Assembly (NCBI GenBank): GCA_019244185.1 | Contig: JAFATB010000026.1 | Span: forward strand, 148,175-212,174 | DNA from: Acidobacteriota bacterium | GTDB lineage: Bacteria > Acidobacteriota > Thermoanaerobaculia > Gp7-AA8 | Direction: 5' to 3' | DNA: 64,000 nt | Part shown: piece after piece, positions 13,595 through 64,000 of the stretch | How the letters are laid out: each line of letters starts with the position of its first letter | Numbering within the stretch: position 1 is the first letter of the stretch | Notes under the pieces: generated by a model | What the model saw: only the letters and a program-made list of their open reading frames with translations | Told to the model about the DNA's origin: nothing | Databases searched by the model: none | Made by a program: the position numbers and the translations under genes

Positions 13595-13620
13595 CGCGCT
13601 CACGCGTCTGACTCGTGCGC

Positions 13621-15855
13621 ATGTCCTTCCAGCGGTTCCCACGCTCCATCAGGGCGGTCGTTTCCACGGCCGCCCTGATGTTCGTTACGCTCTCCTGCGG
13701 GCGCCGTGCGGCGATCCCCGCGCCGTCGCGCCAGACGCCGGTCATCCTGATCTCGATCGATACGCTGCGGTCCGATCACCTGCCTGCATACGGCTACAAG
13801 AGCGTCGAGACGCCCGCCATCGACGCGCTGCGCGCCGACTCGATCCTCTATCGCCGCGCGTACAGCCACACGCCGCTCACGTTTCCGTCGCACGTCTCGA
13901 TCCTCACCGGCATGCTGCCGGCGGACAACGGCGTGCGCGACAACGTCGGCTACCGCGTGTCTCCCTCCGCGCAGATGGTGCAGGAGGTGCTCAAGAAGAA
14001 CGGCTACGTGACGGGCGGCGCGATCTCCGCGTTCGTGCTGCGTCACGAGACGCTGCTCTCGCGCGGCTTCGACTTCTTCGACGACGCCGTGCAGCCGGTG
14101 AACGGGCAGATCGCCATCGGACGCGTGCAGCGCACCGGCGGTGAGACGCTCGCGGCCGGCAAGCCGTGGATCGACGCACATATCAACAAGCCGTTCTTCT
14201 TCTTCCTGCACCTCTACGATCCGCACACGCCGTACACGCCGCCCGAGCCGTACTTCTCGCGTTACACGAATCACTACGACGGCGAGATCGCGTACTCCGA
14301 CTCGCTCGTCGGTGAGCTGATCGCAGACCTCAAGCAGAAGGGCGTCTACGACAAGGCGCTCATCATCCTGCTTTCCGATCACGGCGAAGGTCTCAACGAG
14401 CATGGCGAGGAGGAGCACGGCTTCTTCCTCTATCGCGAGGCCATCCAGGTGCCGCTGCTCGTCAAGCTGCCGAACTCCGCGCGCGGCGGCACCAGCGTCG
14501 ACGCGCCGGTGCAGCTCGTCGACGTCTTCCCGACCATCGTCGAGCGCACCGCCAGCGCGATGCCGCCGGGCAATCATCCAGGACAGTCGCTGCTCGCGTT
14601 CCTCGACAAGAACGCGCCGTCGCGGCAGATCTACTCGGAGACGTACTACGGCCGCTTCCACTTCGGCTGGAGCGAGCTGCATTCGCTGATCAGCGGCAAC
14701 GATCACTACATCCGCGCGCCGCAGCCCGAGCTCTACGACCTCGACAAAGACCCGGGCGAGAAGCACAACGCGATCGAGGAGAACCGCCGCGCGTACGTGC
14801 GTCTGCGCGCCGCGATCGAGCCGCTCATCAAAGAGCCGGAAGCCCCGTCGAACGTCGACTCCGAAACGAAGGCGAAGCTCGCCGCGCTCGGCTACATCGG
14901 CTCGACCGTGCAGACCGCGAAAGGGCAGGCGCTGCCCGATCCGAAGACGAAGATGGGCGAGTTCCACGACGTGCGGCTCGCGTACACGTACTTCGAGAAC
15001 AACAACCCGCAGGAAGCGCTCAACATCACGCAGCGGCTGCTGAAGAACAATCCCGAGCTCGTGGACATGTGGGATCTGCAGGCCAAGATCCTCTTCAAGC
15101 TCAACCGCCGCCAGGATGCGCTCGAAACGGCGAAGGAAGGACTGCGTCATTCGCCGATGGCGATCACGCTGCTCTTCAATGTCGCGGACATCGCGCTCGC
15201 GCTCAACGATCTCGACACCGCGCAGAAGCATCTCGAGATCGCCGAGAAGATCGAGCCGGGCCAGGCGCACGAGACGCTCGCGCGCGTCTGGCTGCTGCGC
15301 GGCAACCAGCAGAAGGGCGAAGAGGAAGCGAAGCTCGCGCTGCAGACGCATCAGATCCCGACGAAAGCGCTGATGATCCTCGGCTCCATCGAGATGGACC
15401 GCCAGCATTACGAGAAGGCGCTCGAGTACTACCGGCAGGCGGGAGCGGGGGAGAAGCGCTGGACCGGGAAGCCGGTCGAGAACCTGCACGCGAACAGCGG
15501 CGACGCGCTGGCACGCCTCGGACGCAACGACGAAGCGGAGCGCGAGTTCCGCGCGGAGCTCGTCGACTTTCCGAAGAACGCGCGCGCGTACTCGTCCCTC
15601 ATCGTGCTGCTCGTGACGGAGCGCCGCACCGACGAGGCCACGCGGCTCGTCTTCGACGCGATCAAAGCCAATCCGACGCCCAACATGTACGAGGTCATCT
15701 CCGAGACGCTGAAGGCGATCGGCGATGATCGCGGCGCGATGTTCTGGGCGTATCAGGGCATCCAGAAGTTTCCGCAGGACGCCGAGCTGCGGCGGCTGCC
15801 GCAACGCCTCGAGCGCGTCACGCCGCTGCTGCGAGAGCACATGCGCACGAACTGA
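13621..15855 (+). CDS. sulfatase-like (alkaline phosphatase superfamily) enzyme fused to C-terminal TPR domain, copy 1
   Basis: ILISIDTLRSDHL metal site, SHTPLTFPSHVSILTG, LLSDHGEGLNEHGEEEHG, then TPR repeats. An alternative GTG start lies at 13615. Confidence 0.85.
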   Translation: MSFQRFPRSIRAVVSTAALMFVTLSCGRRAAIPAPSRQTPVILISIDTLRSDHLPAYGYKSVETPAIDALRADSILYRRAYSHTPLTFPSHVSILTGMLPADNGVRDNVGYRVSPSAQMVQEVLKKNGYVTGGAISAFVLRHETLLSRGFDFFDDAVQPVNGQIAIGRVQRTGGETLAAGKPWIDAHINKPFFFFLHLYDPHTPYTPPEPYFSRYTNHYDGEIAYSDSLVGELIADLKQKGVYDKALIILLSDHGEGLNEHGEEEHGFFLYREAIQVPLLVKLPNSARGGTSVDAPVQLVDVFPTIVERTASAMPPGNHPGQSLLAFLDKNAPSRQIYSETYYGRFHFGWSELHSLISGNDHYIRAPQPELYDLDKDPGEKHNAIEENRRAYVRLRAAIEPLIKEPEAPSNVDSETKAKLAALGYIGSTVQTAKGQALPDPKTKMGEFHDVRLAYTYFENNNPQEALNITQRLLKNNPELVDMWDLQAKILFKLNRRQDALETAKEGLRHSPMAITLLFNVADIALALNDLDTAQKHLEIAEKIEPGQAHETLARVWLLRGNQQKGEEEAKLALQTHQIPTKALMILGSIEMDRQHYEKALEYYRQAGAGEKRWTGKPVENLHANSGDALARLGRNDEAEREFRAELVDFPKNARAYSSLIVLLVTERRTDEATRLVFDAIKANPTPNMYEVISETLKAIGDDRGAMFWAYQGIQKFPQDAELRRLPQRLERVTPLLREHMRTN

Positions 15856-15857
15856 TC

Positions 15858-17987
15858 GTGCATCCGAAGATGGCAGCTCGCAAATCGCGCATCGTCCTCG
15901 TTTCCGTCGTCGCGGTCGTGCTCGTCGCGGCCGCGGCGGCCTGGTTCGTCGTGAAGCGTCATGCCGCGAGCGGCGGCGGTGCCGGCGCGTTCTTCGGCGG
16001 ACACAGCGGCCCCGCGCGCGACATCATCCTCGTCACCATCGACACGACGCGCGCGGACGCGCTCGGCTACGCCGGCAACACCACCGTCCGCACGCCGTTC
16101 CTCGACTCGCTCGCGGCGAAGGGCCTCGTGTTCACGAACGCGCACGCGCACAACGTGATCACGCTGCCGTCCCACATCAACATCTTGACCGGTTTGTATC
16201 CGTACCAGCACGGCGTGCGCGAGAACGCCGGCTTCACGCTCGACGCCTCGCACGCCACCGTCGCCACGATGCTGCGCAAGGCCGGCTACGCGACCGGCGC
16301 GTTCGTCGGCGCGTTTCCGCTCGACGCGCGCTTCGGACTCAATCAGGGCTTCGACGTGTACGACGACAACTACGGCAAAGGACAGGCGACCGTCGACTTC
16401 GTCGTGCAGGAGCGACCCGCGAGCGCCGTGCTCGCCGCGGCCACGGACTGGTGGCGGCGCAACGAAGGGAAGAAGCGCTTCATGTGGGTCCACTGCTACG
16501 ACCCGCACGCGCCGTATCTGCCGCCCGAGCCGTACCGCACGGAGTTCCGCGGACATCCGTATCTCGGCGAGATCTCGTACGTCGACGCGCAGCTCTCCGA
16601 GGCGCTGACGCCGATCCTCACGGCGAATCCCGACGCGCTCGTCATCGTCACCGCCGATCACGGCGAGTCGCTCGGCGAGCACGGCGAGCGCACGCACGGA
16701 CTGTTCGCCTATGAAGTCACGCTGAAGATTCCGCTGCTCCTCGCGCGCGGCGGCGTCGCGCACCGCGTCGTCTCCGACTACGTGCGCCACATCGACATCG
16801 TGCCCACGATCCTCGACTCCGCCGGCGTCGCCGCGCCGAAAGAACTGCTCGGACGCTCGCTGCTGCGGAGCGGCGCCGCGACCGACACGTACTTCGAGTC
16901 GCTGTCGACGTCGATCAACCGCGGCTGGGCGCCGCTCACCGGCGTCATCCACAGCGGCCTGAAGTACATTCAGGTGCCGATCACCGAGCTGTACGACCTG
17001 CAGTCCGATCCGCACGAGCAGACCAACGTCGCCGGCGACCGCCGTCGCGACGTCGAGGCCGCGCGAAAGATTCTGGCGTCGCTCGCGAGCAGCGCGCCCG
17101 CGCCGTCGCGCAACGTTTCGAGCGAAGAGATCGCGCGGCTGCGCAGCCTCGGCTACATCACCGGCTCCGCGGAGACGAAGGACCACTACACCGCCGCAGA
17201 CGATCCGAAGACGCTCGTGCACCTCGACTCGAAGATGCACGACGCGGTCGATGCGTTCGAGCGCGGGCAAGCCGAGCGCGGCCTCTCGCTCGCGCGCGAA
17301 GTGGTCGCCGAGCGTCCGACCATGAGCGCGGGCCGCGAGTTGCTCGCGTTCATGCTGCAGCAGAACGATCGCGTCGCCGAGGCCATCGAACAGCTCGAGG
17401 TGCTGACGCGCGATCCGCACGTGAGCGACGACGACCGCACGCAGCTCGCGTTGCTGTATTGCGAGACCGGGCAGCCGAAGAAAGCGGTCGCGCTGCTCGA
17501 GCCGCACAGCAAGACGGACAATCCCGATCTGCTCAACACGTATGGCGTCGCGCTGTCCGATGACCGCCAGGTCGAGCCCGCGCGGCAGCAGTTCGAGCGC
17601 GCGCTCGCGATCGATCCGAACAACGCGCCGGCGCTGCAGAACCTCGGCATCCTCGCGCTGCGCATGGACGACGTGCCCACCGCGCGCAACTATCTCGGCC
17701 GCGCGCTCGAGCTCAATCCGAAGCTGCCGCTCGCGCTGAACACGCTCGGCGTCGTGTACGCGCGCGAGAACGACTTCCAGCACGCCGTGGAGATGTGGCA
17801 GCGCGCCGTCGACGTCGATCCGCGCCAGTACGACGCGCTCTACAACATCGGCATGGTGGCCGTGCAGGCGCGCAACGCGCCGGCCGCGCGTCAGGCGCTC
17901 ACGCGCTTCGTCAACACCGCGCCGCCGTCGCAATACGCGAACGACATCGCCTCCGCGCGTCGCATCCTCGCGACGATGCCGCACTGA
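15858..17987 (+). CDS. sulfatase-like enzyme fused to C-terminal TPR domain, copy 2 (paralog)
   Basis: ILVTIDTTRADAL, AHNVITLPSHINILTG, VTADHGESLGEHGERTHG, then TPR repeats. It starts 2 nt after the copy 1 stop (alternative ATG at 15870). Confidence 0.85.
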   Translation: MHPKMAARKSRIVLVSVVAVVLVAAAAAWFVVKRHAASGGGAGAFFGGHSGPARDIILVTIDTTRADALGYAGNTTVRTPFLDSLAAKGLVFTNAHAHNVITLPSHINILTGLYPYQHGVRENAGFTLDASHATVATMLRKAGYATGAFVGAFPLDARFGLNQGFDVYDDNYGKGQATVDFVVQERPASAVLAAATDWWRRNEGKKRFMWVHCYDPHAPYLPPEPYRTEFRGHPYLGEISYVDAQLSEALTPILTANPDALVIVTADHGESLGEHGERTHGLFAYEVTLKIPLLLARGGVAHRVVSDYVRHIDIVPTILDSAGVAAPKELLGRSLLRSGAATDTYFESLSTSINRGWAPLTGVIHSGLKYIQVPITELYDLQSDPHEQTNVAGDRRRDVEAARKILASLASSAPAPSRNVSSEEIARLRSLGYITGSAETKDHYTAADDPKTLVHLDSKMHDAVDAFERGQAERGLSLAREVVAERPTMSAGRELLAFMLQQNDRVAEAIEQLEVLTRDPHVSDDDRTQLALLYCETGQPKKAVALLEPHSKTDNPDLLNTYGVALSDDRQVEPARQQFERALAIDPNNAPALQNLGILALRMDDVPTARNYLGRALELNPKLPLALNTLGVVYARENDFQHAVEMWQRAVDVDPRQYDALYNIGMVAVQARNAPAARQALTRFVNTAPPSQYANDIASARRILATMPH

Positions 17988-24427: not shown

Positions 24428-26092
24428 TCAGCGCAGAAATCCGCGCTCGCGCAACAGCGACACGATCCGCCGCGCGTTCTCCTCGGGACGCGCGCGGACC
24501 GTGTCGAGCGTGAGCTCCGGCGCGAGCGGCGGCTCGTACGGATCGTCGATCCCGGTAAAGTTCTTGACCAATCCGGCACGCGCCTGCGCGTACATCCCTT
24601 TGATGTCGCGCGACTCGCACACGTCGAGCGGCGTGTCGACGAAGATCTCGATGAAGCGATGCGCGCCGGCCAGCTCGCGCACGCGGTCGCGCGTCGCGCG
24701 GTACGGGCTCACCGCCGCGCAGACCGCGACGCCGCCGTGGCGCACCACTTCGCTCGCCACGTAGCCGATGCGCAGGATGTTCGTGTCGCGATCCTCTTTC
24801 GAGAAGCCGAGGCCTTTCGAGAGATGCGTGCGCACGACGTCGCCGTCGAGCACCGTCGCTTGTCGCCCGTGCTCGAGGAGCAGCGTGACGACGATGTCCG
24901 CCGTCGTCGACTTGCCCGCGCCGCTCAGCCCCGTGAACCAGAGGCAGAAGCCTTCGCGATATCGCGGCGGGTGTGCCTCCGCGAGAATCGCCGCGACCTC
25001 GGGACGCGTGAACCATTCCGGCAGCGGCTTGCCGGCGGCAAGGTAGTCCTCGCGCACCTGCGTTCCCGACAGCGACAGCGACGGCTTGTCCGACTGCTCC
25101 TCGTAGTGGCCGTCGACGTAGACGAGCTGGCGGAACGGCACCATCTTCACGCCGATCTCGGCTTCGTATTGGGCGACGAGCTGCTGCGCGTCGTACGGAC
25201 CGTAGAACGGCCCGGGACTGGCGTGATCGCGGCCGACGATGAAGTGGTTCGCGCCGAAGTTGCGGCGGATGATCGCGTGCCACAGCGCCTCGCGCGGTCC
25301 GGCCATGCGCATCGCCAGCGGCAGCAGCGAGAGCAGCACGCGATCGGGCTCGTAGTAGTGCTCGACGAGCGCCTTGTACGTGCGGACGCGCGTGTAGTGA
25401 TCGATGTCGCCCGGCTTCGTGAGCCCGACCACGGGATGCAGCAGCAGCACGCCGTCGGTCGCTTCAATCGCGCGATGCGTGAGCTCCTCGTGCGCGCGAT
25501 GCAGCGGATTCCGCGTCTGGAACGCGACGACGTTTTCGCGTCCACGTTCGGCGAGCAGCGCGCGCACGTCCGCAGGCGTGCGGCGCAGTTCGACGAAGTC
25601 GTAATGCGACGGCAGCCGCAACACGCGCAACGGTCCGCTGATCTGCAGCCGTCCCCAGCGATCCATCTCCGCCACGAGCGGATGTTTGCGATCGGTCGTG
25701 CCGAAGACTTTCTGCGCCGTCTCGTCGACGTCCCAGCCGTAGATCTCGTCGACGGTCATCACCGCGAGCAGTTCCTGCCGCGGGCTGCGCAGCGCGACGT
25801 CGTGATGCAGTGCGACCGGCGCGCTCGCGTCGACCGGCAGTGTCACCGGAATCGGGAACAGCGCGCCGCCGGCGAGACGCATCTCGTCGAGCACGCGTTG
25901 AAAGTCGGCCTGGCCGAGGAAGCGATCGAGCGGGGAGAAGGCGCCGGTGGCAAGGAGCTCGAGGTCGCACGTCGAACGTTCGCTGAGCTGCACCGACGGC
26001 AACGTCGCGGCATAACGCGCGAGCTCGGCGGCGGTCTCGGGCGGCTCGAGCAGGTTCACGAGAGTGCCGCCGTACGGAGAGATCAGTTCCAT
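24428..26092 (-). CDS. sat-cysC: bifunctional sulfate adenylyltransferase / adenylylsulfate kinase
   Basis: The N-terminal ATP-sulfurylase has the QTRNPLHRAHEELT and GANHFIVGRDHA motifs. The C-terminal APS kinase has the P-loop GLSGAGKST and LDGDVVR. Confidence 0.9.
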   Translation of the reverse strand: MELISPYGGTLVNLLEPPETAAELARYAATLPSVQLSERSTCDLELLATGAFSPLDRFLGQADFQRVLDEMRLAGGALFPIPVTLPVDASAPVALHHDVALRSPRQELLAVMTVDEIYGWDVDETAQKVFGTTDRKHPLVAEMDRWGRLQISGPLRVLRLPSHYDFVELRRTPADVRALLAERGRENVVAFQTRNPLHRAHEELTHRAIEATDGVLLLHPVVGLTKPGDIDHYTRVRTYKALVEHYYEPDRVLLSLLPLAMRMAGPREALWHAIIRRNFGANHFIVGRDHASPGPFYGPYDAQQLVAQYEAEIGVKMVPFRQLVYVDGHYEEQSDKPSLSLSGTQVREDYLAAGKPLPEWFTRPEVAAILAEAHPPRYREGFCLWFTGLSGAGKSTTADIVVTLLLEHGRQATVLDGDVVRTHLSKGLGFSKEDRDTNILRIGYVASEVVRHGGVAVCAAVSPYRATRDRVRELAGAHRFIEIFVDTPLDVCESRDIKGMYAQARAGLVKNFTGIDDPYEPPLAPELTLDTVRARPEENARRIVSLLRERGFLR

Positions 26093-26140
26093 GCGGCGCG
26101 CATTCTACGGTCTCGCGGCACCGCTTATACTCGCCCTCGC

Positions 26141-26839
26141 GTGGAATCGGATTTCGAGCAGCGACTCGGCTACACCTTTCAGCAGCGCGAGCTGCTGCGC
26201 CGCGCGCTGACGCACAAGTCGTATTCGCACGAAGCCAAAGACGACGCCGTGCGGCACAACGAGACCTTCGAGTTCCTCGGCGACTCCGTGCTCGGCTTCA
26301 TAGTCGGCGACCTGCTCTTCCATCAGTTCCCGGATCTCGACGAGGGCGCGCTCTCGAAGATGAAGGCGTTCCTCGTCAGCGCGCCGAGTCTCGCGAAGAA
26401 AGCGCGCGGCTACGGGATGGGCGAGGTCATGCTCCTCGGCGTCGGCGAGGAGAAGACCGGCGGCCGCAAGAAAGACTCGCTGCTCGCGAATCTCTTCGAG
26501 GCGATCGTCGCCGGGATCTACCTCGACGGCGGCATCGAGCCCGCGCGGCAGCTCATCGAGCGCTCGTTCCTCGACGACATCCGCTCCATCGACGAACAGG
26601 ACCTGCTCTTTCAGGACTACAAGACCGCGCTGCAGGAGCTCGCGCAGGGCAACGGCTTGCAGCTGCCGGAGTACAACGTCGTCGCCGAAGTCGGTCCCGA
26701 TCACGACAAGACGTTCGTCATCGAAGTGAAGGTCGGCAGCTTGACCGCGCGCGGCGAAGGCTCGTCGAAGAAAGAAGCGCAGCAGCAGGCGGCGCGGCTC
26801 GCGATGCGCGAATACGACGCGCGCCATTCCTCATCGTGA
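26141..26839 (+). CDS. rnc: ribonuclease III
   Basis: NETFEFLGDSVLG signature, FEAIVAGIYLDGG, and a C-terminal dsRBD (GPDHDKTFVIEV...GSSKKEAQQQAA). GTG start at 26141. Only the last third of track ORF 24659..26839 is real. Confidence 0.9.
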   Translation: MESDFEQRLGYTFQQRELLRRALTHKSYSHEAKDDAVRHNETFEFLGDSVLGFIVGDLLFHQFPDLDEGALSKMKAFLVSAPSLAKKARGYGMGEVMLLGVGEEKTGGRKKDSLLANLFEAIVAGIYLDGGIEPARQLIERSFLDDIRSIDEQDLLFQDYKTALQELAQGNGLQLPEYNVVAEVGPDHDKTFVIEVKVGSLTARGEGSSKKEAQQQAARLAMREYDARHSSS

Positions 26840-55138: not shown

Positions 55139-55165
55139 GGTGCGGTGTTACCATGCGCCGTTCCC

Positions 55166-55669
55166 ATGCAGCGCAATCAGGTCCTCTTCCTCGTCAAATT
55201 CTTTCTGATCCTCGTCGCGGCGTACCTGCTCATCGCCTGGACGCCGGTCAACGACCGCGTGATCGTGCCGTTCACGCACGGCGTGGCCGCGGCGTCGGGC
55301 GCGCTGCTCAACGGCATCGGCCAGCACGTCGCCGTCGACGGCACGGTCATCCGCTCGCCGCGCTTCGGCGTGAACATCAACAACGGCTGCAACGGCGTCG
55401 AGGCGATGCTGATCCTGCTCGCGTCGATCGTGGCCTTCCCCGCGTCGCCGAAGCAGCGCGCGATCGGGCTGTTGCTCGGCGCGATCGCCGTGCAGGCGCT
55501 CAACGCGATCCGCATCGTGACGCTCTATCTCCTCGGCGCGTATCAGCCGCGCCTCTTCGACATCTTCCACACCGCCGTCTGGCAGATCGCGATCATCCTC
55601 GCGGCCATCGGATTCTTCCTCGCATGGAGTGCACGGGTTGCCCCGACTCGACTGGCGAACCGCGCTTAA
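55166..55669 (+). CDS. short exosortase-family transpeptidase (XrtH-like)
   Basis: About 170 aa, multi-TM, with candidate catalytic Cys (NNGCNGVEAML), Asn/Arg (LNAIRIV) and His (IFHTAVWQ) in exosortase order. An alternative GTG start lies at 55145. Confidence 0.7.
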   Translation: MQRNQVLFLVKFFLILVAAYLLIAWTPVNDRVIVPFTHGVAAASGALLNGIGQHVAVDGTVIRSPRFGVNINNGCNGVEAMLILLASIVAFPASPKQRAIGLLLGAIAVQALNAIRIVTLYLLGAYQPRLFDIFHTAVWQIAIILAAIGFFLAWSARVAPTRLANRA

Positions 55670-56213
55670 GGCTCTCGCCGGCTTTCTCACCGGCCTCGCG
55701 CTGTGGGTCGTGCTCACGCCGCTCTACGACCGCGTCATCGGCGCGGGCGCGGAAGCGACGCTGCGCGCGTTCGAGAGCCCGTCCGTGACGCGCCTCCATC
55801 GTGAGGCCGACGGCTACACGACCGTCGACCGCAGCGACTTCGACCCGCGCTCGAAACAGCGGCCGACCGTCGCCATCAAAGACCTCACCTTCAACTTCGT
55901 GCTGCTCGCCGCGCTCTTCGCGATCGCGAAGCGGCCGTTCTCCGATCGCAACATCGGCGGCTTTCTCGCGGCCTCGGCCGCGCTCGCGGTCACGCACGTC
56001 GGCGCGACGATCGCGGAAGTCATGTCGATCTACGTCGCGAAGCTCGGCATCTGGAGCACCGTGCATTACGGCGAGACGGCGCGCAACATCTGGGGCGTCA
56101 CCGCCACGTTCTACCGCGTCGTGCTGATGTACGCGATCGTCTTCGCGCTCTGGTTCGTCTTCCGCGATCCCGGCGCCGCGCCGGTGCCGAAGAAAAAGAA
56201 GCGAGCGCGCTGA
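55629..56213 (+). CDS. exosortase-associated hypothetical membrane protein
   Basis: Four hydrophobic helices and a Lys-rich tail (PKKKKRAR). The GTG start overlaps the exosortase gene by 41 nt; the true start may be later. Confidence 0.55.
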   Translation: MHGLPRLDWRTALKALAGFLTGLALWVVLTPLYDRVIGAGAEATLRAFESPSVTRLHREADGYTTVDRSDFDPRSKQRPTVAIKDLTFNFVLLAALFAIAKRPFSDRNIGGFLAASAALAVTHVGATIAEVMSIYVAKLGIWSTVHYGETARNIWGVTATFYRVVLMYAIVFALWFVFRDPGAAPVPKKKKRAR

Positions 56214-56220
56214 AGCGTCC

Positions 56221-56290
56221 CGCAGTTGCGGACGCGAAACGGCGCGCGCAGTTGCGGACGCCAAACGGCGCGCGCAGTTGCGCGCGTCCG
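56221..56290. repeat. 26-bp tandem direct repeat, about 2.4 copies
   Basis: CGCAGTTGCGGACGCGAAACGGCGCG (56221-56246), then CGCAGTTGCGGACGCCAAACGGCGCG (56247-56272), then the partial copy CGCAGTTGCGCGCGTCCGCC. Confidence 0.85.
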
Positions 56291-56330
56291 CCGCGCGAGG
56301 TAAAACAGACGCTTCCGGAGGATTGCTGCG

Positions 56331-57236
56331 ATGCGTCTGGTCACGCGTGGTGACCTCGACGGCCTCACGAGCGCCGTCATCATCACGATGAAGGAGCCGG
56401 TGGACGAGCTCCTGCTCGTGCATCCGCAGGACATCACCGACCAGCGCGTCGACATCCGCTCCGACGACATCCTCACGAACCTGCCGTACGACCCGCGCTG
56501 CGGCATGTGGTTCGATCACCATCTCCTCACCGACAGCAACCAGCGTCCCTCCGGCGCGTTCCGCGGCCGCTACGACATCGCGCCGTCGGCGGCGCGGCTC
56601 GTGTACGACTACTACCTCGAACAGGCACCCGACGATCCCGCGCTGCTGCGCCTCGCGCCGCTCGTCGACGAGACCGACCGCCTCGACGCCGCGCTCCTCA
56701 CGCCCACCGACGTCGAGTCGCCACGCGACTACATCCTCCTCGGCTACACGATGGACAGCCGCACCGGCCTCGGCGCGTTCGACGATTACTTCCGCAAGCT
56801 CGTCGCCTGGCTCAAGACGATGTCCATCGACGAGGTGCTCGCGCAGCCGGATGTCCGCGAACGCGTGGAACGCATCCGCGCCGATCAGGCGGACTTCAAG
56901 CGCCTCCTCGTGCGCAACAGCTTCCTGCTGAACAACGTCGTCGTCACCGACCTGCGCGAGATCGACCGGCTCCCCGCCGGCAACCGCTTCCTCGTCTACT
57001 CGCTCTTCCCGCAGGCGAACGTCTCGCTGCGCGTGCACTGGGGACCGCGCGAGAACAGCGTCATCGCCGCGGTCGGCCACAGCATCTTCAACCGCACGTG
57101 CAAGACATCGGTGGGCGAGCTGATGTCGCGCTTCGGCGGCGGCGGCCACCGCGGCGCCGGCACGTGCGTCCTCCCCGTGGAGCGCGCGGCCGACGCCATC
57201 GATGAGATCCTCTACGAACTGCAGGCGAACGGATGA
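56331..57236 (+). CDS. DHH/DHHA1-family phosphoesterase
   Basis: GDLDG (DxD), WFDHH (DHH) and C-terminal GGGGHRGAG (DHHA1 GGGH) motifs. GGAGG RBS. Confidence 0.75.
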   Translation: MRLVTRGDLDGLTSAVIITMKEPVDELLLVHPQDITDQRVDIRSDDILTNLPYDPRCGMWFDHHLLTDSNQRPSGAFRGRYDIAPSAARLVYDYYLEQAPDDPALLRLAPLVDETDRLDAALLTPTDVESPRDYILLGYTMDSRTGLGAFDDYFRKLVAWLKTMSIDEVLAQPDVRERVERIRADQADFKRLLVRNSFLLNNVVVTDLREIDRLPAGNRFLVYSLFPQANVSLRVHWGPRENSVIAAVGHSIFNRTCKTSVGELMSRFGGGGHRGAGTCVLPVERAADAIDEILYELQANG

Positions 57237-59521
57237 AACTACGCACCGCGCTCCTCCTGGTCCTCGCGCTTGCCGCGCCCGCGTTCGCGGCGTCGAATCA
57301 GAACGTCGTCGAAGGCAACAGCGGCCTCACCATCGTGCGCGTCACGTTCACGATTCCGGCGCCGGTGAATCTGCCGGTCACCGGGCATTACGAGACGGTG
57401 GACGGCACGGCCACCGCGGCCGACAACGACTACCAGCCCGTGAGCGGCGACTTCGTCATTCCGTCGGGCCAGACGTCGAGCGAGCCGGTCGACATCCCGA
57501 TCGTCGGCGACACGAAAGTGGAGTCCGACGAGACGTTCCAGCTCGTCCTCAGCAACATCCAGAACGGCGCCGAGCTCGATCCCGGTCCGTACTCCTTCAC
57601 GATCGTCAACGACGACGCGCCGGTCATCAGCGTCACCGGCACCTCCGTGCGCGAAGGCAACTCTGGCACGACCGCGCTGCCGTTCGACATCGTGCTCGGC
57701 GCGCCGGCGGCGACGCCGCTGCAGATCGCATACACCACGATCCCCGGCACGGCGACGGCGGGCGAGGACTACGTCCCCGCGAACGCCACCGTGACGTTCG
57801 CGCCGGGCGAGGTGCGCAAGACCGTGAACGTCACGGTGATCGGCGACACGCGATTCGAGCCCGACGAGACGCTCACGCTCGTCGCCGCGCAGTCCGGCCT
57901 GCCGCCGTCCGCACCCGCGAGCGCCGTCGGCACGATCATCAACGACGACACGCGCCCGGCCGCGAGCCTCACCATCGTCAGCGGCAACAACCAGAGCGGG
58001 CGGCTCGGCCAACCACTCGCGCAGCCGCTGGTCGTGCAGGTCAACGACGCTGCGGGCGCGCCCGTCGCCGGCGCAACCGTGCAGTGGAGCGTGACGCGCG
58101 GCGCCGCGCAGCTCGATCCCGCCACGAGCACGACCAACGCGGAAGGACGCGCGTCGACGATCGTGACGCCGAACAGCGTCGGCGCCATCGACATCCGCGC
58201 GAGCTCCGGCGATCTGCCGCCGGTCACGTTCACGATCGCCGCGCAGACGACGCTCGAAGCGCGCGCGAACGGCCCGGTCGCGAAACCGATCGCGCACGTG
58301 CTCGACGGCGTCTGCGCGCGCAACGAAGAGCCGTTCACGCTCGTCTGCCGCGCGCTCGAACGCCTGCCCGACACCGACCTCACGCCCGCCCTCGAGCGCA
58401 TCGCGCCGCAGCAGGCGGGCGCGCAGTCGAAGATCGCCGGCGAGATCATCGCGAACATCACCGCGAGCCTCAGCGCGCGCCTCGCCGAACGCCGCGCCGG
58501 CGCGCGCTTCTCGCTGCAGCACGCGTCGCTCTCGATCGGCGGACAGCCCGTGCCCGTGGCCATCGTCGCGAACGCGCTCCTCGAACAGACCGGCACCGGC
58601 GCCGCGACGGGCGACGCGAACGGCGACGACTACAACGGCTGGTCCGCGTTCGTCAGCGGCAATCTCGGCACCGGCGAGCGTCGCGCGAGCTCCGGCGCGC
58701 TCGGCTTCGATCTCGATACAAGCGGCGTGATGGTGGGCGTCGATCGGCAGTTCGGCGAGAACATCTTCGGCCTCTCCGCGAACGCCGGCTGGCTCGACGC
58801 GACGCTCAGCGCCGGCACCGGCACCGTCGACACGACGAACTACGCGCTCTCGCTCTACGGCAGCCGCGGCGGTCTCTTCGCCGGCAGCGCCGCGCCGTCC
58901 ACCGGCACGTCGATGCATTACGACGGCGTGCATCTCGAAGGCAGCCTCACCGCCGGACGCAGCCAGTTCGACGCCACGCACATCGTGAGCGTGCCGCTCC
59001 TGCCGTCGTCGACCGCGCACAGCTCGAACGATGCGACGCTCTTCGCGCTCACCGCGGGGGGCGGCGTCGACGCGCATCGCGGCCGCACCGACTTCGACTT
59101 CGCGCTCTCCGGCACGTGGTCGCGCACGCGGATCGACGACCTCGCCGAAAGCGACGCCGGTCCGCTGGTGCTCTTCGTCGATGGACACGACATCGAGTCG
59201 CTCGTCGCCAACGCGGGACTCGACGTCCGCTCCGCGATCGCGGTGCCGTTCGGCACGCTGATGCCGACGTTCCGCGGTGAGCTCGTGCACGAGTTCCGCA
59301 GCGCGGCGCGCCTCGTCACCGCGCACTTCCTGCACGACCATCTCGGCACCGGCTTCACGATTCCGGTCGATCAGCCGGACGCGAACTACGGCAAGCTGTC
59401 GGCGGGCCTGCAGGCGGTCTTCCCGCGCGGCGTCTCCGCGTTCGTCGAGGTGACGCAGGACGTGGCGCGCTCCGACTTGCGCTTCCGTACGCTGCAGTTC
59501 AATCTGTCGAAGTCGTTCTGA
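57233..59521 (+). CDS. autotransporter with two Calx-beta domains and an Ig-like (Big_1-type) domain
   Basis: Signal peptide. Calx-beta signatures (VGDTKVESDETFQLVLS, IGDTRFEPDETLTLVA). Ig-like LTIVSGNNQSG...VVQVNDAAGAPVAGATVQWSV. C-terminal beta-barrel ending LQFNLSKSF. Confidence 0.8.
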   Translation: MKLRTALLLVLALAAPAFAASNQNVVEGNSGLTIVRVTFTIPAPVNLPVTGHYETVDGTATAADNDYQPVSGDFVIPSGQTSSEPVDIPIVGDTKVESDETFQLVLSNIQNGAELDPGPYSFTIVNDDAPVISVTGTSVREGNSGTTALPFDIVLGAPAATPLQIAYTTIPGTATAGEDYVPANATVTFAPGEVRKTVNVTVIGDTRFEPDETLTLVAAQSGLPPSAPASAVGTIINDDTRPAASLTIVSGNNQSGRLGQPLAQPLVVQVNDAAGAPVAGATVQWSVTRGAAQLDPATSTTNAEGRASTIVTPNSVGAIDIRASSGDLPPVTFTIAAQTTLEARANGPVAKPIAHVLDGVCARNEEPFTLVCRALERLPDTDLTPALERIAPQQAGAQSKIAGEIIANITASLSARLAERRAGARFSLQHASLSIGGQPVPVAIVANALLEQTGTGAATGDANGDDYNGWSAFVSGNLGTGERRASSGALGFDLDTSGVMVGVDRQFGENIFGLSANAGWLDATLSAGTGTVDTTNYALSLYGSRGGLFAGSAAPSTGTSMHYDGVHLEGSLTAGRSQFDATHIVSVPLLPSSTAHSSNDATLFALTAGGGVDAHRGRTDFDFALSGTWSRTRIDDLAESDAGPLVLFVDGHDIESLVANAGLDVRSAIAVPFGTLMPTFRGELVHEFRSAARLVTAHFLHDHLGTGFTIPVDQPDANYGKLSAGLQAVFPRGVSAFVEVTQDVARSDLRFRTLQFNLSKSF

Positions 59522-59526
59522 TCCGC

Positions 59527-61011
59527 ATGCGCTCCGCCGCCGCGCTCTTGTTGCTGCTCGCTGTCTTCGCGCCGATCCTGCGCGCGCAGAACGCCGACGA
59601 TCTCGTGCTCGTCGACTGCCGCCTGCCGCCGAAGATGAAACGCATCGGCGGGCGCACGTATCCGGTCGCTGCGCGTCCGATCCGCACGACCGCGCTCGAC
59701 TGCCGCATTCGCGGCGGCGAGTACACGGTGTACGACCGCGCGAACTACGCAACGTCGCTCAAGATCTGGCTCGACGCCGCGGAGAAAGGCGATCGCGACG
59801 CGCAGTACTACGTCGGCAAGCTCTACGAAGGCGGCCTCGGCACGCCGCCCGATTTCGCCGCCGCCGCGCGCTGGTACGCGAAGGCCGCCGACGCGGGCCT
59901 CAGCGCCGCGCAGTTCAGCCTCGGGACGCTCTACGAAAAGGGCCTCGGCGTTCCCGCCGATCCGGCCAAAGCGTTCGCGCTCTATCGCCGCGCCTCGGGA
60001 CTGCCGGACAACGTCGTGCTCGTCGAGAGCGCGAAGTACGAGGAGCTCGAGCGCGCCGCGAACGACCTCGCCGCGCGCGAGCAGGAGATCGACGAGCTGC
60101 AACGCCAGCTCGACGACGCGCGCAAACAGCACAAGCTCGATCATCAGCGCGAGCGCGAGCTCACGCAGCAACTCGACGCCGCGAAACAAAAGGCGGACAC
60201 GCAGCGCAAAGACGTCGCCAGCAAACGCAACGCGGTGCACGTCGCCGCGACGAATGCCGCGCCGCTGCCGTCCGCGAAGCGCGGGACGCTCGGACGCTAC
60301 GTCGCGCTCGTCATCGGCAACGCGACGTACGACCATCTGCCGCCGATGCCGTCGGCCGAAACGAACGCGCGCGCCGTGGCCGCGCTGCTGCGCGACGCGT
60401 ACGGCTTCGACGTCACGCTGCTCCTCAACGCGCGCAACGACGCCATCCTCGCCAGCCTCTACAAACTGAGCCAGACGCTCGGCGAGAACGACAATCTCGT
60501 CGTCTACTACGCCGGCCACGGCCGCCGCGACCTGCGCAACCGGCGCGGCTGGTGGCTGCCTGCCGACGCGGATGCCGACGCCGCCGCGAAGACGAACTGG
60601 CTGCCGAATCAGGACGTCAGCGACCGGCTCGCGCTCGTGCCCGCGCGGCACATCCTCGTCCTCGCCGACGCGTCGTACGTCGGCGACATCACCCGCGGCG
60701 CGCCGCAGCCCGCGCCTTCGAACCTCACCGCCGCGCAGTGGTCGAAGTATCTCGAGACGACGAAGAGCCGCCGCGCGCGGCTCGCGCTCTCGTCCGGCGC
60801 GGACGAGCCGTCCGCCACCGGCTCGCGCTTCACGGCCGCGCTGCTCGAAGTGCTGCAAAAGCAGAAGGGCGTCGTGCCCGCGTCGCGCATCCACCAGGAG
60901 GTGGTCAACGTGTTGACCGCCGACGAGCGAGTGACCTCCGCCGTGCCGATCTTCGCGCCGCTGCAGTCGGCGTTTCACGACGGCGTCGACTTCCTCTTCG
61001 AGCGCCGATGA
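59527..61011 (+). CDS. secreted Sel1-repeat / coiled-coil / caspase-like (C14 fold) protein with Ser at the catalytic Cys position
   Basis: Signal peptide. Sel1 repeats (AQYYVGKLYEGGLGTPPDFAAAARWYAKAADAG, AQFSLGTLYEKGLGVPADPAKAFALYRRAS). Coiled coil. YVALVIGNATY...VVYYAGHG...ILVLADASYVG. Confidence 0.8.
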   Translation: MRSAAALLLLLAVFAPILRAQNADDLVLVDCRLPPKMKRIGGRTYPVAARPIRTTALDCRIRGGEYTVYDRANYATSLKIWLDAAEKGDRDAQYYVGKLYEGGLGTPPDFAAAARWYAKAADAGLSAAQFSLGTLYEKGLGVPADPAKAFALYRRASGLPDNVVLVESAKYEELERAANDLAAREQEIDELQRQLDDARKQHKLDHQRERELTQQLDAAKQKADTQRKDVASKRNAVHVAATNAAPLPSAKRGTLGRYVALVIGNATYDHLPPMPSAETNARAVAALLRDAYGFDVTLLLNARNDAILASLYKLSQTLGENDNLVVYYAGHGRRDLRNRRGWWLPADADADAAAKTNWLPNQDVSDRLALVPARHILVLADASYVGDITRGAPQPAPSNLTAAQWSKYLETTKSRRARLALSSGADEPSATGSRFTAALLEVLQKQKGVVPASRIHQEVVNVLTADERVTSAVPIFAPLQSAFHDGVDFLFERR

Positions 61012-62798
61012 GCACCGTTCTCGACGAGATCGCGGAGCGCTTCGACGTCCTCGCCAAGCTCGGCGAGGGCGGCATGGGCTGCGTCTACAAGGTCCGCCAC
61101 CGCGACCTCGACGAAGTGCAGATCGTGAAGACGCTGCAGGCGCACCTCAGCACGAACGAAGGGCTGCGCACGCGCTTCATCAATGAGGCGCGCCGAGGAA
61201 TGAGGTTGAGGCATCCGCACATCGCGGGAGTGCATGATTTTCACGTCTGCGCGGACGGCACCGGCTACATCGTGATGGAGTACGTGCACGGCCTCAATTT
61301 GCGCGACCTCGTCAGCGCGCGCGGGCCGCTGCGCGTGCCGCTCGTCGGCGCGATCGCCTTGCAGACGCTCGACGCGCTCGGCTACCTGCACAGCCAGAAG
61401 TTCGTTCACCGCGACATCTCGCCCGACAACCTGATCCTCACGCAGACCGCCGACGGCCACCCGTTCGTCAAGCTCATCGACCTCGGCATCTCGAAGTCGC
61501 TCGACGAAGGCAACACCATGACCCAGACCGGCCAGTTCCTCGGCAAGGTTGCGTACGCGTCGCCCGAGCAGTTCGGCGGCCACGTGGACGGCCGCAGCGA
61601 TCTCTATTCGTTCGGCGTCGTGCTCTACAAGCTACTGACGAACGAGGAGCCGTTTGCCGGCGAGAACTACCGCGAGATCATCAGCGCGCATCTCTTCCAG
61701 AAGCCGCGGCCGTTCCCGCCGGAGCTCGAGATTCCGGACGCCGTCCAGCAGGTCGTGTTCCGCGCGCTCGAGAACGAGCCGGCACATCGCTACGCCGACG
61801 CCCACGAGTTCGCGGATGCCGTCGAGGAAGCGTTCGGCGTGCAGCGCGAGCGGACGACGCGTCCCGCGCTCGAACGCATCTCGCGCGCCGAAGACGCGAC
61901 GCTCGTCGACGGCGAGACGACGGCGATCGACACCACCGTCGCGGAGACGTCGTTCGCCGCGGCACCGACCATCGGCGAAACGGTCGTCGCGCGTCCGCGC
62001 GCGTCGCGGCGCTGGCCGTTACTCGCAGCTATCGTCCTCGTGCTGCTCGTCGCCGGCGCGCTCGTCTGGCAGCGGATGCACGCGGCCGCGCTCGCGCGCT
62101 ACGGCAACTTCTACGCGGTCGTCATCGGCGAAGGGGAGTACCGCAAGTTCGAAGCGCTGCCCACCGCCGTCGACGACGCGCGCGCCGTCGCGCAGTTGCT
62201 CGAGTCGCGATACGGCTTTCACGTAACGCGGCTCGAGAACGCGAAGCAGCAGGAGATCCTCGCCGCGCTGAACGCCGTCGGCAAGCAGCTCACGCCCGCC
62301 GACAACCTGCTCGTCTTCTACGCCGGCCACGGCTCGCTGCTCAACGGCAAGGGCTACTGGCAGCCGGTCGACGCCGGCTTCGACATGACGAACTGGATCT
62401 CGCCCGCGCTCGTGAAAGACGCGCTGCTCGATCATCCCGCGCGCCGTGCGCTCGTCATCGCCGACACGTGCTATTCCGGCGCGCTCGTGCACGGCGCGCT
62501 CGCGACGTTGCCGCCCGATGAGCGCTTGACGAAACGCGCGCGTCTCGTCCTCAGCTCCGGCGGCACCGCGCCGGTGATCGACTCCGCCGACGGCCGTCAC
62601 TCGATCTTCACGCGCGCACTCCTCGACGTCCTCGGCGAGCGCGGACGCGGCGTCACCGACGTGCAGTCGATCTTCACGCCGATTGAGGCGCGCGTCATCG
62701 ACGCCGCCCGGCGCGACGGCCACGAGCAGAAGCCGGAGCTCGCCGCGATGGCCGAGGTGGGGGATGAGGGCGGGACGTTCTACTTCGTCAGGCGCTGA
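61008..62798 (+). CDS. Hanks-type Ser/Thr protein kinase, single TM, extracytoplasmic caspase-like (C14) domain
   Basis: ATGA overlap with the upstream gene. Kinase motifs GEGGMGCVY, IVK, HRDISPDNL, DLG, SPE. TM segment WPLLAAIVLVLLVAGALVW. Caspase-like YAVVIGEGEY...LVFYAGHG...LVIADTCYSG. Confidence 0.85.
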   Translation: MSTVLDEIAERFDVLAKLGEGGMGCVYKVRHRDLDEVQIVKTLQAHLSTNEGLRTRFINEARRGMRLRHPHIAGVHDFHVCADGTGYIVMEYVHGLNLRDLVSARGPLRVPLVGAIALQTLDALGYLHSQKFVHRDISPDNLILTQTADGHPFVKLIDLGISKSLDEGNTMTQTGQFLGKVAYASPEQFGGHVDGRSDLYSFGVVLYKLLTNEEPFAGENYREIISAHLFQKPRPFPPELEIPDAVQQVVFRALENEPAHRYADAHEFADAVEEAFGVQRERTTRPALERISRAEDATLVDGETTAIDTTVAETSFAAAPTIGETVVARPRASRRWPLLAAIVLVLLVAGALVWQRMHAAALARYGNFYAVVIGEGEYRKFEALPTAVDDARAVAQLLESRYGFHVTRLENAKQQEILAALNAVGKQLTPADNLLVFYAGHGSLLNGKGYWQPVDAGFDMTNWISPALVKDALLDHPARRALVIADTCYSGALVHGALATLPPDERLTKRARLVLSSGGTAPVIDSADGRHSIFTRALLDVLGERGRGVTDVQSIFTPIEARVIDAARRDGHEQKPELAAMAEVGDEGGTFYFVRR

Positions 62799-62812
62799 TC
62801 TTCAGACGCCGA

Positions 62813-64000
62813 TCAGATATCCGGCCAGTGCCGCAGCAGCGACGGCGTCGAGTGCGCGAGGTACAGCACCGCGTCGAACTTCGCGCCGAAGTCCGCCGGC
62901 AGATCGAGCGTCGCCGCATCGGGTGACGGCACGGCCGAGCCGGCGATGCGCATGCGGTGCGTGCCCGCGAGCCACGGCGGCAGCGGCGCGTGCAGCGGGA
63001 CGATCATCGCGTCGAGCCGCGCTTGTGCGAGAAGCCGCGCGAAGTCGTCGGGCGACGGCGCCGTCATCTGCTGCGCGCCGATGAAGCCGTCGAAGGTGCC
63101 GGGCAGATACTCGACGGCGAGGAACGTGCCGTCGAGCAGCGCGGAGCCGAGGGCGAAGTAATCGTTGCCGAACGTCGCGGCGAGCGATGAGCCGGCGCTG
63201 CGGATCGGACGCGGATCCTGCAGCACGTAGTCGGTGCGTCCCCAATGCTCGTTGTGCCCGAGGACGACGACGCGGTCGCGTTGCGCGAGCCAGGTGAGGT
63301 TCTCCGCCATCGCCGCGTCGCGCGCGTTGCGGTCGCCGGCGGCGACGCGCTCGCTCTGTTCGACGATGCGCGCGGCGTGGAGCACTTCATCGAGCTCGGG
63401 CGACGGCGGATGTGACGCGAGCGACGTGCGCACGCCGGCGATGAGAGAACGGCAGCGCTCATCGCCGCGATACGACGCGCCCATGCACGCGTAGTTCGCC
63501 TGCGCTTCCTCGGCCGCGGCGGGATCGATGCGACCGAGGTAGTCGACGACGACGCGCATGGCACCGGCGGTGGGATCGACGCCGGCGATGCGGATCGGCG
63601 GCGTGAGCCCGGCGGCGTTCTGCGCGCGCGCCCACATGAGGAGGTCGAAGACTTCCTGCGCGTCCCAGAACCAGTAGCGCGCGAGTGCGAGCGCGGCCGC
63701 GGGATCGCCGCTGCCGTGCACGATGTAGTCGTCGAGTTGCGCGTACTCCGCGTACGGCGCCTCGAACGCGATCGTGCGGAAGCCGGCATCGACGAGCGCC
63801 GGCACGAGCTGCTGCTTCGACGCGAAGAGCTCGTGCGTGCCGTGCGTGGCGTCGCCGAGGGCGACGATGCGGGCGTTCGAGACGAGGCGCAGGAAGGGTG
63901 AGAGGGTGCCGTCGATGCGGATCGCGCGCTGCCGCAGCCACGCGGCGGGCGTGTCGACGTCGCCGGAGCGCACCGCGCGCACGCGTGCGGCGAGCGGCAG
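62813..64000 (-). CDS. erythromycin esterase-family protein (partial; reading frame still open at right edge)
   Basis: IVALGDATHGTHELF...AFEAPYAEY...VVLGHNEHW motifs. The frame is open upstream of the GTG at 63982 to the window end. Confidence 0.8.
   Translation of the reverse strand: MPLAARVRAVRSGDVDTPAAWLRQRAIRIDGTLSPFLRLVSNARIVALGDATHGTHELFASKQQLVPALVDAGFRTIAFEAPYAEYAQLDDYIVHGSGDPAAALALARYWFWDAQEVFDLLMWARAQNAAGLTPPIRIAGVDPTAGAMRVVVDYLGRIDPAAAEEAQANYACMGASYRGDERCRSLIAGVRTSLASHPPSPELDEVLHAARIVEQSERVAAGDRNARDAAMAENLTWLAQRDRVVVLGHNEHWGRTDYVLQDPRPIRSAGSSLAATFGNDYFALGSALLDGTFLAVEYLPGTFDGFIGAQQMTAPSPDDFARLLAQARLDAMIVPLHAPLPPWLAGTHRMRIAGSAVPSPDAATLDLPADFGAKFDAVLYLAHSTPSLLRHWPDI

Follow-up and report, generated by a model that had tools for sequence, protein, structure and literature searches.

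A Hanks-type kinase with a caspase-fold ectodomain and a secreted pseudo-C14 neighbour in Thermoanaerobaculia

The subject of this analysis is a 64,000-nucleotide stretch of DNA, hereafter the window, from a soil or sediment Acidobacteriota bacterium (GTDB lineage Thermoanaerobaculia, Gp7-AA8; GenBank assembly GCA_019244185.1, contig JAFATB010000026.1, positions 148,175 to 212,174 of the forward strand), and in particular one of its genes, the kinase-C14 gene, which encodes a Hanks-type Ser/Thr kinase, one transmembrane (TM) helix and a Peptidase_C14 (caspase-like) domain in a single protein. Most likely, this gene belongs to an uncharacterised envelope signalling module rather than to a defence system. 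The reading preferred here, to which about an even chance is given, is that the protein is a PknB-like receptor kinase in which a caspase-fold ectodomain replaces the usual sensor and works together with a pseudo-C14 partner encoded directly upstream and, in this lineage, with an outer-membrane Calx-beta autotransporter. An earlier look at the letters of the window (the original prediction) had already described a complete kinase, one TM helix and a C14 domain in one open reading frame (ORF), and Pfam, hydropathy and motif positions bear this out:

61008 to 62798, + strand: kinase-C14 gene (Hanks kinase, TM helix and C14 domain), 596 aa
61044 to 61796, + strand: Hanks-type Ser/Thr kinase domain, residues 13-263, predicted to be cytoplasmic (Pfam Pkinase, motifs)
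61059 to 61085, + strand: kinase G-loop LGEGGMGCV
61407 to 61430, + strand: kinase motif HRDISPDN
61476 to 61487, + strand: kinase motif IDLG
61557 to 61568, + strand: kinase motif ASPE
62013 to 62069, + strand: single TM helix WPLLAAIVLVLLVAGALVW, residues 336-354, with RPRASRR just before it (hydropathy)
62112 to 62747, + strand: Peptidase_C14 domain, residues 369-580, orthocaspase/paracaspase-like, predicted to be periplasmic (Pfam, AlphaFold2, Foldseek)
62316 to 62333, + strand: C14 motif FYAGHG
62460 to 62480, + strand: C14 motif ADTCYSG
62328 to 62330 and 62469 to 62471, + strand: codons of the predicted catalytic dyad, His441 and Cys488

On translation, the interval 61008-62798 is one stop-free reading frame, whose start codon overlaps the end of the preceding gene in the tetranucleotide ATGA (61008-61011). 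The mechanical ORF opens at a GTG at 60552; since the ortholog consensus has the same initial Met and the same length as the window protein, 61008 is taken as the real start. A gene fusion or mis-call was considered as a possible artefact and rejected, because the uninterrupted architecture recurs with the same start in about 200 independent clusters. Both domains stand above their Pfam thresholds when the 596-residue product is searched, the check that had been suggested with the original prediction. The Pkinase match (PF00069; E 9.8e-42, 143.6 bits against a cutoff of 31.7) spans profile positions 2-253 of 263 and thus covers the catalytic domain, and the Peptidase_C14 match reaches E 1.2e-24 (87.8 bits against a cutoff of 21.4), with the fold continuing past residue 580 to the C-terminus at 596. 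In current databases, proteins of this kind are named "protein kinase", "caspase family protein" or "Bud32".

The kinase motifs are all found, namely GEGGMG, the Lys of IVK41, the αC Glu in NEARRG, HRDISPDN, DLG and SPE, and the activation loop carries Thr172 and Thr174 in the form TQT. The best NCBIfam match is PknB_PASTA_kin (NF033483), which covers residues 8-355 with 253.6 bits, below the cutoff of 450, and no PASTA repeat was found in the protein with Pfam, which leaves it outside the PASTA-kinase family. In the C14 domain, both catalytic signatures that had been pointed out beforehand are present: His441 of YAGHG and Cys488 of ADTCYSG align to the dyads of GSU0716 and AtMC4, and Asp390, Asp486 and Asp525/Asp528 are candidates for an acidic pocket, the dyad and these Asp residues being invariant or nearly so.

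The weight that these motifs carry is best judged from an alignment of 120 orthologs at 63-86% identity, from which all conservation figures for the close family are taken; more than 120 orthologs exist in this identity range, all of them combine Pkinase with Peptidase_C14, and those that are named derive without exception from metagenome-assembled genomes (MAGs) of Thermoanaerobaculia or other Acidobacteriota. The G-loop, Lys41, the αC Glu, HRDISPDN, DLG and Thr172/Thr174 are at least 98% invariant, as are YAGHG with His441 and AD(S/T)CYSG with Cys488; the Ser of SPE is less conserved, at the 80-98% level, and the cytoplasmic linker (residues 264-335) and the TM segment are poorly conserved. 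YAGHG and ADSC[YF]xG are also found in all 19 distant kinase copies, comprising 14 kinase-bearing representatives and five further copies. By this measure of residue conservation, the motifs are kept far beyond chance, both the kinase and the protease halves are under purifying selection, and the C14 domain is apparently active, that is, catalytically competent. Its specificity can be predicted as well. The S1-pocket residues of TbMC2 are Asp95 and Asp211 (PMC6426788), and their equivalents in the kinase-C14 protein, Asp390 in an AVxD motif and Asp486 in DxC, are both conserved; a basic P1 residue is therefore predicted, with cleavage after Arg or Lys rather than after Asp, the pattern known from metacaspases, orthocaspases and MALT1.

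A fold search was needed for the ectodomain, because its sequence gives only marginal matches in the PDB (E 0.009-0.6). The AlphaFold2 (AF2) model of residues 357-596 has a pLDDT of 89.1 and a pTM of 0.90, and its compact C14 domain comprises about 228 residues. When this model is compared with the PDB by Foldseek, the MALT1 paracaspase ranks first, above all metacaspases (E about 1e-11, TMq 0.66-0.71), followed by yeast and plant metacaspases, Geobacter GSU0716 and animal caspases; the probability is 1.00 for MALT1, Yca1, AtMC9, caspases 1, 3, 6 and 7, and CED-3. The failure of the C-terminal domain to resemble caspases had been named in advance as grounds for abandoning the proposal, and the matches by Pfam and Foldseek point the other way, so that, at the level of the predicted model, the caspase-hemoglobinase fold of the ectodomain is confirmed.

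Windows of 19 residues with a Kyte-Doolittle mean above 1.5 occur only at starts 332-344, with a peak of 2.5 at 336, and the hydrophobic segment is single in 120 of 120 orthologs and in 81 of 82 distant relatives. The flanks show a positive-inside bias, with more Lys and Arg in the 15 residues before the helix than in the 15 after it in 66 orthologs versus 23, and with the N-terminal flank richer in these residues in 72 distant relatives versus two. Since the kinase depends on ATP from the cytoplasm, and since the protein lacks a signal sequence at its N-terminus and has one TM helix, the C14 domain should lie across the membrane from the kinase. That this C14 subtype can fold and work in the periplasm is suggested by the adjacent paralog, described below, with its signal peptide and conserved Cys pair. 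The proposed placement of the kinase inside and of the C14 domain outside is thus supported by the single helix, the charge bias and the secreted paralog. The original prediction had gone further and put the protease fold at the cell surface; its extracytoplasmic location stands, while the surface location does not, because the first β-strand of the C14 fold begins only about 14 residues after the TM helix, a spacing that would keep the domain at the periplasmic face of the inner membrane.

Directly upstream of the kinase-C14 gene lies a paralog that had been overlooked as a pseudo-protease, just as the conserved three-gene module and the roughly 200 clusters sharing the kinase architecture had been missed:

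59527 to 61011, + strand: secreted pseudo-C14 partner, 494 aa (Pfam Sel1, E 2.3e-18; Peptidase_C14, E 7.8e-18, 65.4 bits against a cutoff of 21.4); its layout comprises a signal peptide (residues 1-20), a small β domain, Sel1 repeats, a helical/coiled-coil region (about 168-242) and a pseudo-C14 domain (259-464 and beyond)

The signal peptide looks cleavable, with MRSAAALLLLLAVFAPILRA followed by QN after the predicted cut, the small β domain holds a conserved Cys31/Cys59 pair, and Lys and Arg are very abundant in the coiled coil. YAGHG is present in the C14 domain of this partner, and the nucleophile motif reads LADASYVG, so that Ser383 replaces the catalytic Cys. Among 120 orthologs of the partner, the Cys position is occupied by Ser in 116 and by Ala in four, never by Cys, and the His position by His in 116 and by Arg in four. 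Distant partners carry Leu, Val, Ala or His at the Cys position, and sometimes the His is gone too; unlike its neighbour, the kinase copy in the same operon never loses His or Cys. The pocket Asp residues of the partner are mostly kept: Asp381 is invariant, and at least 90% of orthologs have Asp at position 280. The window partner itself has Asn280 at this S1-pocket position (60352-60372), which by comparison with the orthologs would mean that the dead pocket has decayed further or been retuned in this strain. Judged by its motifs, the partner is a pseudo-orthocaspase, with the C14 fold and a substituted nucleophile, that could still bind basic peptides. Its AF2 model is of moderate confidence (mean pLDDT 71, pTM 0.45, with disordered active-site loops) and was kept out of all arguments on pocket and interface.

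The third member of the module precedes the partner:

57233 to 59521, + strand: 762-aa type Va autotransporter, first in the module (Pfam)

This protein is composed of a signal peptide, a passenger with two Calx-beta domains and a Big_1 domain, and a C-terminal β-barrel (Autotransporter E 2.6e-29, Calx-beta E 3.3e-29, Big_1 E 1.3e-11), and the β-domain match at residues 473-740 (103.2 bits against a cutoff of 26) assigns it to type Va. Together with the gene that precedes it, the module forms a tight run of four genes at 56331-62798, with 4-bp overlaps or a 5-bp gap. Its conservation was followed in six GTDB species representatives, further long contigs and the window, which amount to nine distinct Thermoanaerobaculia loci once one long contig identical to that of a GTDB representative is discounted; the underlying contig scan used a pattern specific to the window protein, returned six full-length species representatives along with many unrelated kinases, and is not a phylum-wide census. 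The order autotransporter, Sel1-pseudo-C14, kinase-C14 is kept at nine of the nine loci, with an α/β-hydrolase gene inserted between autotransporter and partner at one of them (L086), and the genes flanking the module differ at every locus. Neither the XrtH genes, nor the 301-aa gene, nor the erythromycin-esterase-like gene of the window is kept with the module elsewhere. At seven distant loci, with about 40-50% identity, the pseudo-C14 partner adjoins the kinase-C14 gene in four and the autotransporter is present in two, the arrangements being convergent, divergent, upstream and, in a permuted order, autotransporter, kinase, partner. The survey of co-occurrence that the original prediction had called for thus found the module at all nine close loci and the partner at four of the seven distant ones. 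Because the linkage outlasts rearrangement, the genes are taken to function together, and on this comparative evidence the autotransporter, the pseudo-C14 protein and the kinase-C14 protein are a self-contained, conserved three-gene module.

Three genes for α/β-hydrolases of about 240-270 aa, with 44-52% identity between copies and lipoprotein-like N-termini in two of the three, recur beside kinase-C14 genes (L086, 7654-8427; L091, 10064-10783; L093, 9980-10792), in L091 and L093 directly downstream of a partner-less kinase; there is none in the window, and the recurring hydrolase may be an alternative or additional component of the module. Two of the partner-less copies sit on one 5.2-Mb contig, one (L088, 3400-7400) near a transposase, AbiEii and a BrnT toxin, the other (L093, 11000-17900) near a phage integrase and a prophage-like run of small ORFs with Amidase_3.

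How far the architecture extends was approached from the ectodomain. A full HMMER scan with the ectodomain alone returned 30,592 representative clusters at E <= 1e-3, of which 1,658 also pass E <= 1e-30, so that this C14 subtype must be very common. About 67 of the best 150 representatives are Sel1-like-repeat C14 proteins, and 14 have a kinase domain N-terminal to the C14 domain, with the dyad intact in all and two being fragments; a hydrophobic segment between kinase and C14 is found in 13 of these 14, the scan window having been mis-set for P0287. A profile built from ten distant kinase-C14 proteins added about 80 clusters at 90% identity with both Pkinase and Peptidase_C14, some with TPR insertions (1,000-1,176 aa) and some from genomes with two copies, which brings the kinase-TM-C14 architecture to at least about 200 sequence clusters. 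The named clusters are all Acidobacteriota (Thermoanaerobaculia, Holophagales or unclassified), a range drawn from the name-bearing subset of matches. A neighbour-joining (NJ) tree separates the C14 domains into three clades, those of the kinase-fused proteins, of the pseudo-partners and of the active Sel1-C14 proteins, which suggests, as far as sequences can tell, a single ancient duplication and inactivation followed by co-inheritance, and hence an old pairing of active and pseudo forms. Also among the closest ectodomain relatives are seven tandem double-C14 proteins (P0243, P0244, P0245, P0249, P0253, P0262 and P0312; seven of the best 150 representatives), in most of which the N-terminus resembles a signal peptide. 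In several of them one of the two domains has decayed, with Val or Ser in place of Cys or Gln in place of His, which gives a Rosetta-stone hint that an active and a dead C14 domain act together.

In the preferred reading, in which the receptor kinase senses through its caspase-fold ectodomain, the pseudo-C14 partner would be recruited or released by an envelope or surface cue and bind the C14 domain of the kinase, whether as a caspase-style side-by-side partner, as a substrate or as a substrate-presenting adaptor; it may form dimers through the coiled coil and may be responsive either to the autotransporter or to a different envelope cue. Binding would shift the oligomeric state of the ectodomain and lead to trans-autophosphorylation of the kinase at the TQT threonines, and the active C14 domain might cut the partner or another periplasmic protein after Arg or Lys, making the switch irreversible or resetting it. 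Hanks receptor kinases such as PknB are activated through ectodomain-driven oligomerisation and trans-autophosphorylation of the activation loop, and MALT1 and caspases are switched by dimerisation; because of these precedents, and of that of caspase-8 and FLIP(L), partner binding is proposed to set kinase activity. We infer that the active and pseudo-C14 pair is the periplasmic sensory unit of the kinase, and likewise infer the physical interaction, the direction of signalling, the substrate and the physiological input. A more ambitious version would have a surface Calx-beta autotransporter signal to the periplasmic pseudo-caspase and from there to the kinase, with an active/pseudo heterodimer and Arg/Lys cleavage gating phosphorylation; such a trans-envelope pathway is put forward tentatively and seems doubtful, and if true it would be a proteolysis-coupled receptor kinase with no characterised bacterial precedent.

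Several points weigh against a receptor kinase regulated by its partner. Characterised orthocaspases and metacaspases are not known to require dimerisation (PMC5756287), for which reason a heterodimer like that of caspase-8 and FLIP is offered as an analogy only. At three of the seven distant loci, the kinase-C14 gene has neither an adjacent partner nor an adjacent autotransporter, so that the kinase presumably works without a neighbouring partner. In addition, the topology was derived from a hydropathy scan, charge counts and the logic of the secreted paralog rather than from a dedicated predictor, the NJ tree carries no support values, and all sequences are derived from metagenomes or MAGs.

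The main rival, which appears improbable, reverses the direction of the device: the C14 domain would be the output, and the kinase, its phosphorylation or dimerisation set by cytoplasmic cues, would tether and gate a protease that processes proteins in the periplasm, maturing or shedding envelope components such as the co-encoded autotransporter passenger in transit or the Sel1 partner. The strict conservation of dyad and acidic pocket is what would be expected of a working protease, the gene of a secreted protein, the autotransporter, is tightly linked, and initiator caspases and MALT1, the best structural matches, are as a rule activated by proximity. Yet no cytoplasmic sensor domain can be recognised in the kinase, where residues 264-335 are a poorly conserved linker; the autotransporter is absent beside five of the seven distant homologs, and a dead paralog as an obligate neighbour fits regulation or sensing better than plain substrate processing. 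It is also conceivable, and rather unlikely, that the ectodomain is a peptide-binding sensor, for instance for periplasmic or cell-wall peptides with Arg or Lys, the dyad serving in binding or covalent trapping without any proteolysis. PknB-type kinases do sense peptide-containing ligands through their ectodomains, the partner mostly retains both pocket Asp residues, and an acidic pocket is retained in pseudo-orthocaspases, for which binding of basic peptides is presumed (PMC6426788). What makes pure peptide binding less likely is that selection has kept the dyad in the kinase copy only: the Cys is lost in the partner, whereas His and Cys are kept in the kinase of at least 98% of the 120 orthologs and in 19 of the 19 distant copies, a difference not easily accounted for if catalysis were of no importance in the kinase copy.

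The original prediction had left room for a conflict module, that is, for a caspase-like effector and a kinase acting together in anti-phage defence, abortive infection or programmed cell death. Several bacterial conflict systems indeed use caspase-like proteases as effectors, the protein gives a sub-threshold match to the NCBIfam family caspase_w_EACC1, the kinase domain matches the profiles of PD-T4-6, mad6 and PglW at E 1e-20 to 1e-75, and two distant homologs, L088 and L093, lie near mobile or toxin genes. These profile matches, however, reflect the generic kinase domain: those in PADLOC cover the kinase domain, some up to about residue 358, and none reaches into the C14 domain, and the NCBIfam scores are far below the cutoffs (MAD6, 141.6 against 460; PglW, 69.7 against 990), so that the protein falls outside all three defence-kinase families. 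No methylase, BREX or MADS genes were found in the neighbourhood of the kinase-C14 gene in the window. The EACC1-associated caspase (NF047832) was rejected in the same way, the score being 84.4 bits against a cutoff of 140 and no EACC-like neighbour being found in the window or at the compared loci. Furthermore, the protease is placed in the periplasm, and the module is kept class-wide, with identities of 63-86%, its surroundings being unremarkable, different from locus to locus and devoid of NTPase, STAND or EACC partners. A defence system was therefore rejected on the generic, sub-cutoff kinase matches, the C14 domain without a PADLOC match and the lack of a defence-island context, and a role in conflict is regarded as highly improbable; of the "undescribed sensory or conflict module" first proposed, "undescribed" stands and "conflict" falls away.

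Considered against known systems, the parts are familiar (Hanks kinase, orthocaspase, pseudo-orthocaspase, Sel1-C14 protein, autotransporter), and what is new is the combination of an enzymatic ectodomain with a dedicated pseudo-enzyme partner. With the PASTA kinases PknB and Stk1, which include its best NCBIfam match, the kinase-C14 protein shares the N-terminal cytoplasmic kinase, the juxtamembrane linker, the single TM helix, the C-terminal extracytoplasmic sensor and the TQT double-threonine activation loop. It differs from them in lacking PASTA repeats, in scoring below the family cutoff, in having a protease fold with an intact dyad as ectodomain and in being co-encoded with a dedicated secreted pseudo-enzyme and an autotransporter. 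With orthocaspases such as Microcystis MaOC1 it shares a p20-type C14 domain, the His/Cys dyad in (Y/F)AGHG and D-x-C-x-SG, and the pocket Asp residues that point to Arg/Lys, and the closest sequence relatives of the ectodomain are secreted Sel1-C14 proteins; here, in contrast, the C14 domain follows a kinase and a TM helix. Additional domains of C14 proteins are, according to a review, mostly C-terminal to p20 (PMC5756287), and many kinds of fusion, Sel1-C14 and TM-C14 among them, are known from reviews and censuses of caspase homologs in prokaryotes. In the 2012 census of Asplund-Samuelsson (PMC3501461), Sel1-C14 and iTMHo-C14 architectures are recorded and extracytoplasmic and Sel1-fused forms are common; the only related entries found in the same census are a Frankia EuI1c protein with C14 and Pkinase in the reverse order and without a TM helix, and Rhizobium operons that join C14 proteins with a kinase of the type Pkinase, TM, FGE-sulfatase. 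No Pkinase-TM-C14 receptor, and no pairing of one with a pseudo-C14 protein, was found in full-text literature searches, in keeping with the statement in the original prediction that no characterised example was known.

More distant parallels come from eukaryotes and cyanobacteria. MALT1, which ranks first among the structures compared with the modelled ectodomain, is a compact caspase-fold protein that lacks a p10 of the metacaspase type and has an acidic pocket with Arg specificity and a signalling role as scaffold plus protease; it shares only 17-20% sequence identity, is eukaryotic and cytosolic, and carries death, Ig and other domains. Homology is confined to the protease fold. The pairing of an active caspase-fold enzyme with a paralogous pseudo-enzyme, encoded by linked genes, resembles that of caspase-8 with FLIP(L), the pseudo-caspase that lacks the catalytic Cys and regulates caspase-8 in animals (PMC7586951). 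The resemblance would be one of analogy, of independent origin; the acidobacterial pair is predicted to act in the periplasm, has Sel1 repeats and a coiled coil where the animal proteins have DED domains, and would have a Ser/Thr kinase as output. Finally, the partner shares with cyanobacterial pseudo-orthocaspases (YS/YN; PMC6426788) the substituted nucleophile, the largely kept acidic pocket and extracytoplasmic export. It differs from them in being H-S (rarely R-A) rather than Y-S, in its Sel1 repeats and coiled coil, in its acidobacterial origin and in its genetic coupling to an active C14-kinase.

The surroundings of the module in the window offer some further observations. Upstream of the autotransporter, a 301-aa ORF (56331-57236), without a Pfam or PADLOC match, overlaps the autotransporter start by 4 bp and looks co-transcribed with it, and is absent from the module at all other loci examined. 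Directly upstream (55145-56213) are the genes of an exosortase XrtH (PF09721) and an XrtH-associated protein, which are not kept beside the module in other genomes. Both the 301-aa gene and the XrtH genes were considered as parts of the module and rejected, since neither is conserved beside it elsewhere. The gap between the XrtH-associated gene and the 301-aa gene holds, at 56221-56282, 2.4 tandem copies of a 26-nt unit, CGCAGTTGCGGACGC(G/C)AAACGGCGCG, whose core CGCAGTTGCG occurs three times at 26-nt spacing, overlapping GC-rich palindromes; this array may be an operator or a structured element. A scan of 55500-63100 found no σ70-like promoter, a result that is uninformative for this high-GC acidobacterium, and the sole terminator-like site in that interval is on the wrong strand and within a gene. 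Downstream, convergent with the kinase-C14 gene and with 14 bp between the stop codons, is a gene of the erythromycin-esterase family (62813-63982, - strand; PF05139, E 1.6e-50), called at 408 aa by JGI against 389 aa for the mechanical ORF. Farther away in the window are two tandem paralogous proteins with Sulfatase and TPR domains (13615-17987, + strand; 746 and 709 aa) and a 726-aa mechanical ORF (24659-26839) with RNase III and dsRBD domains confined to its C-terminal third (residues about 500-720), which probably starts much later or else has an unusual N-terminal extension.

Only a handful of sensor ectodomains are known for bacterial receptor-type Hanks kinases, and a caspase-fold ectodomain would, if the reading is true, add proteolysis or peptide capture as a mechanistically different input to such a kinase. 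The function of bacterial caspase homologs has long been open and has mostly been framed around cell death, whereas a lineage-wide, vertically conserved periplasmic pair of active and pseudo forms joined to a kinase supports a role in signalling or homeostasis. The pairing of an active caspase-fold enzyme with a dead paralog would have arisen independently of animals. With three genes and clear point mutants, the module is a compact test system, and it is a defining feature of the Thermoanaerobaculia, a little-studied and environmentally abundant class.

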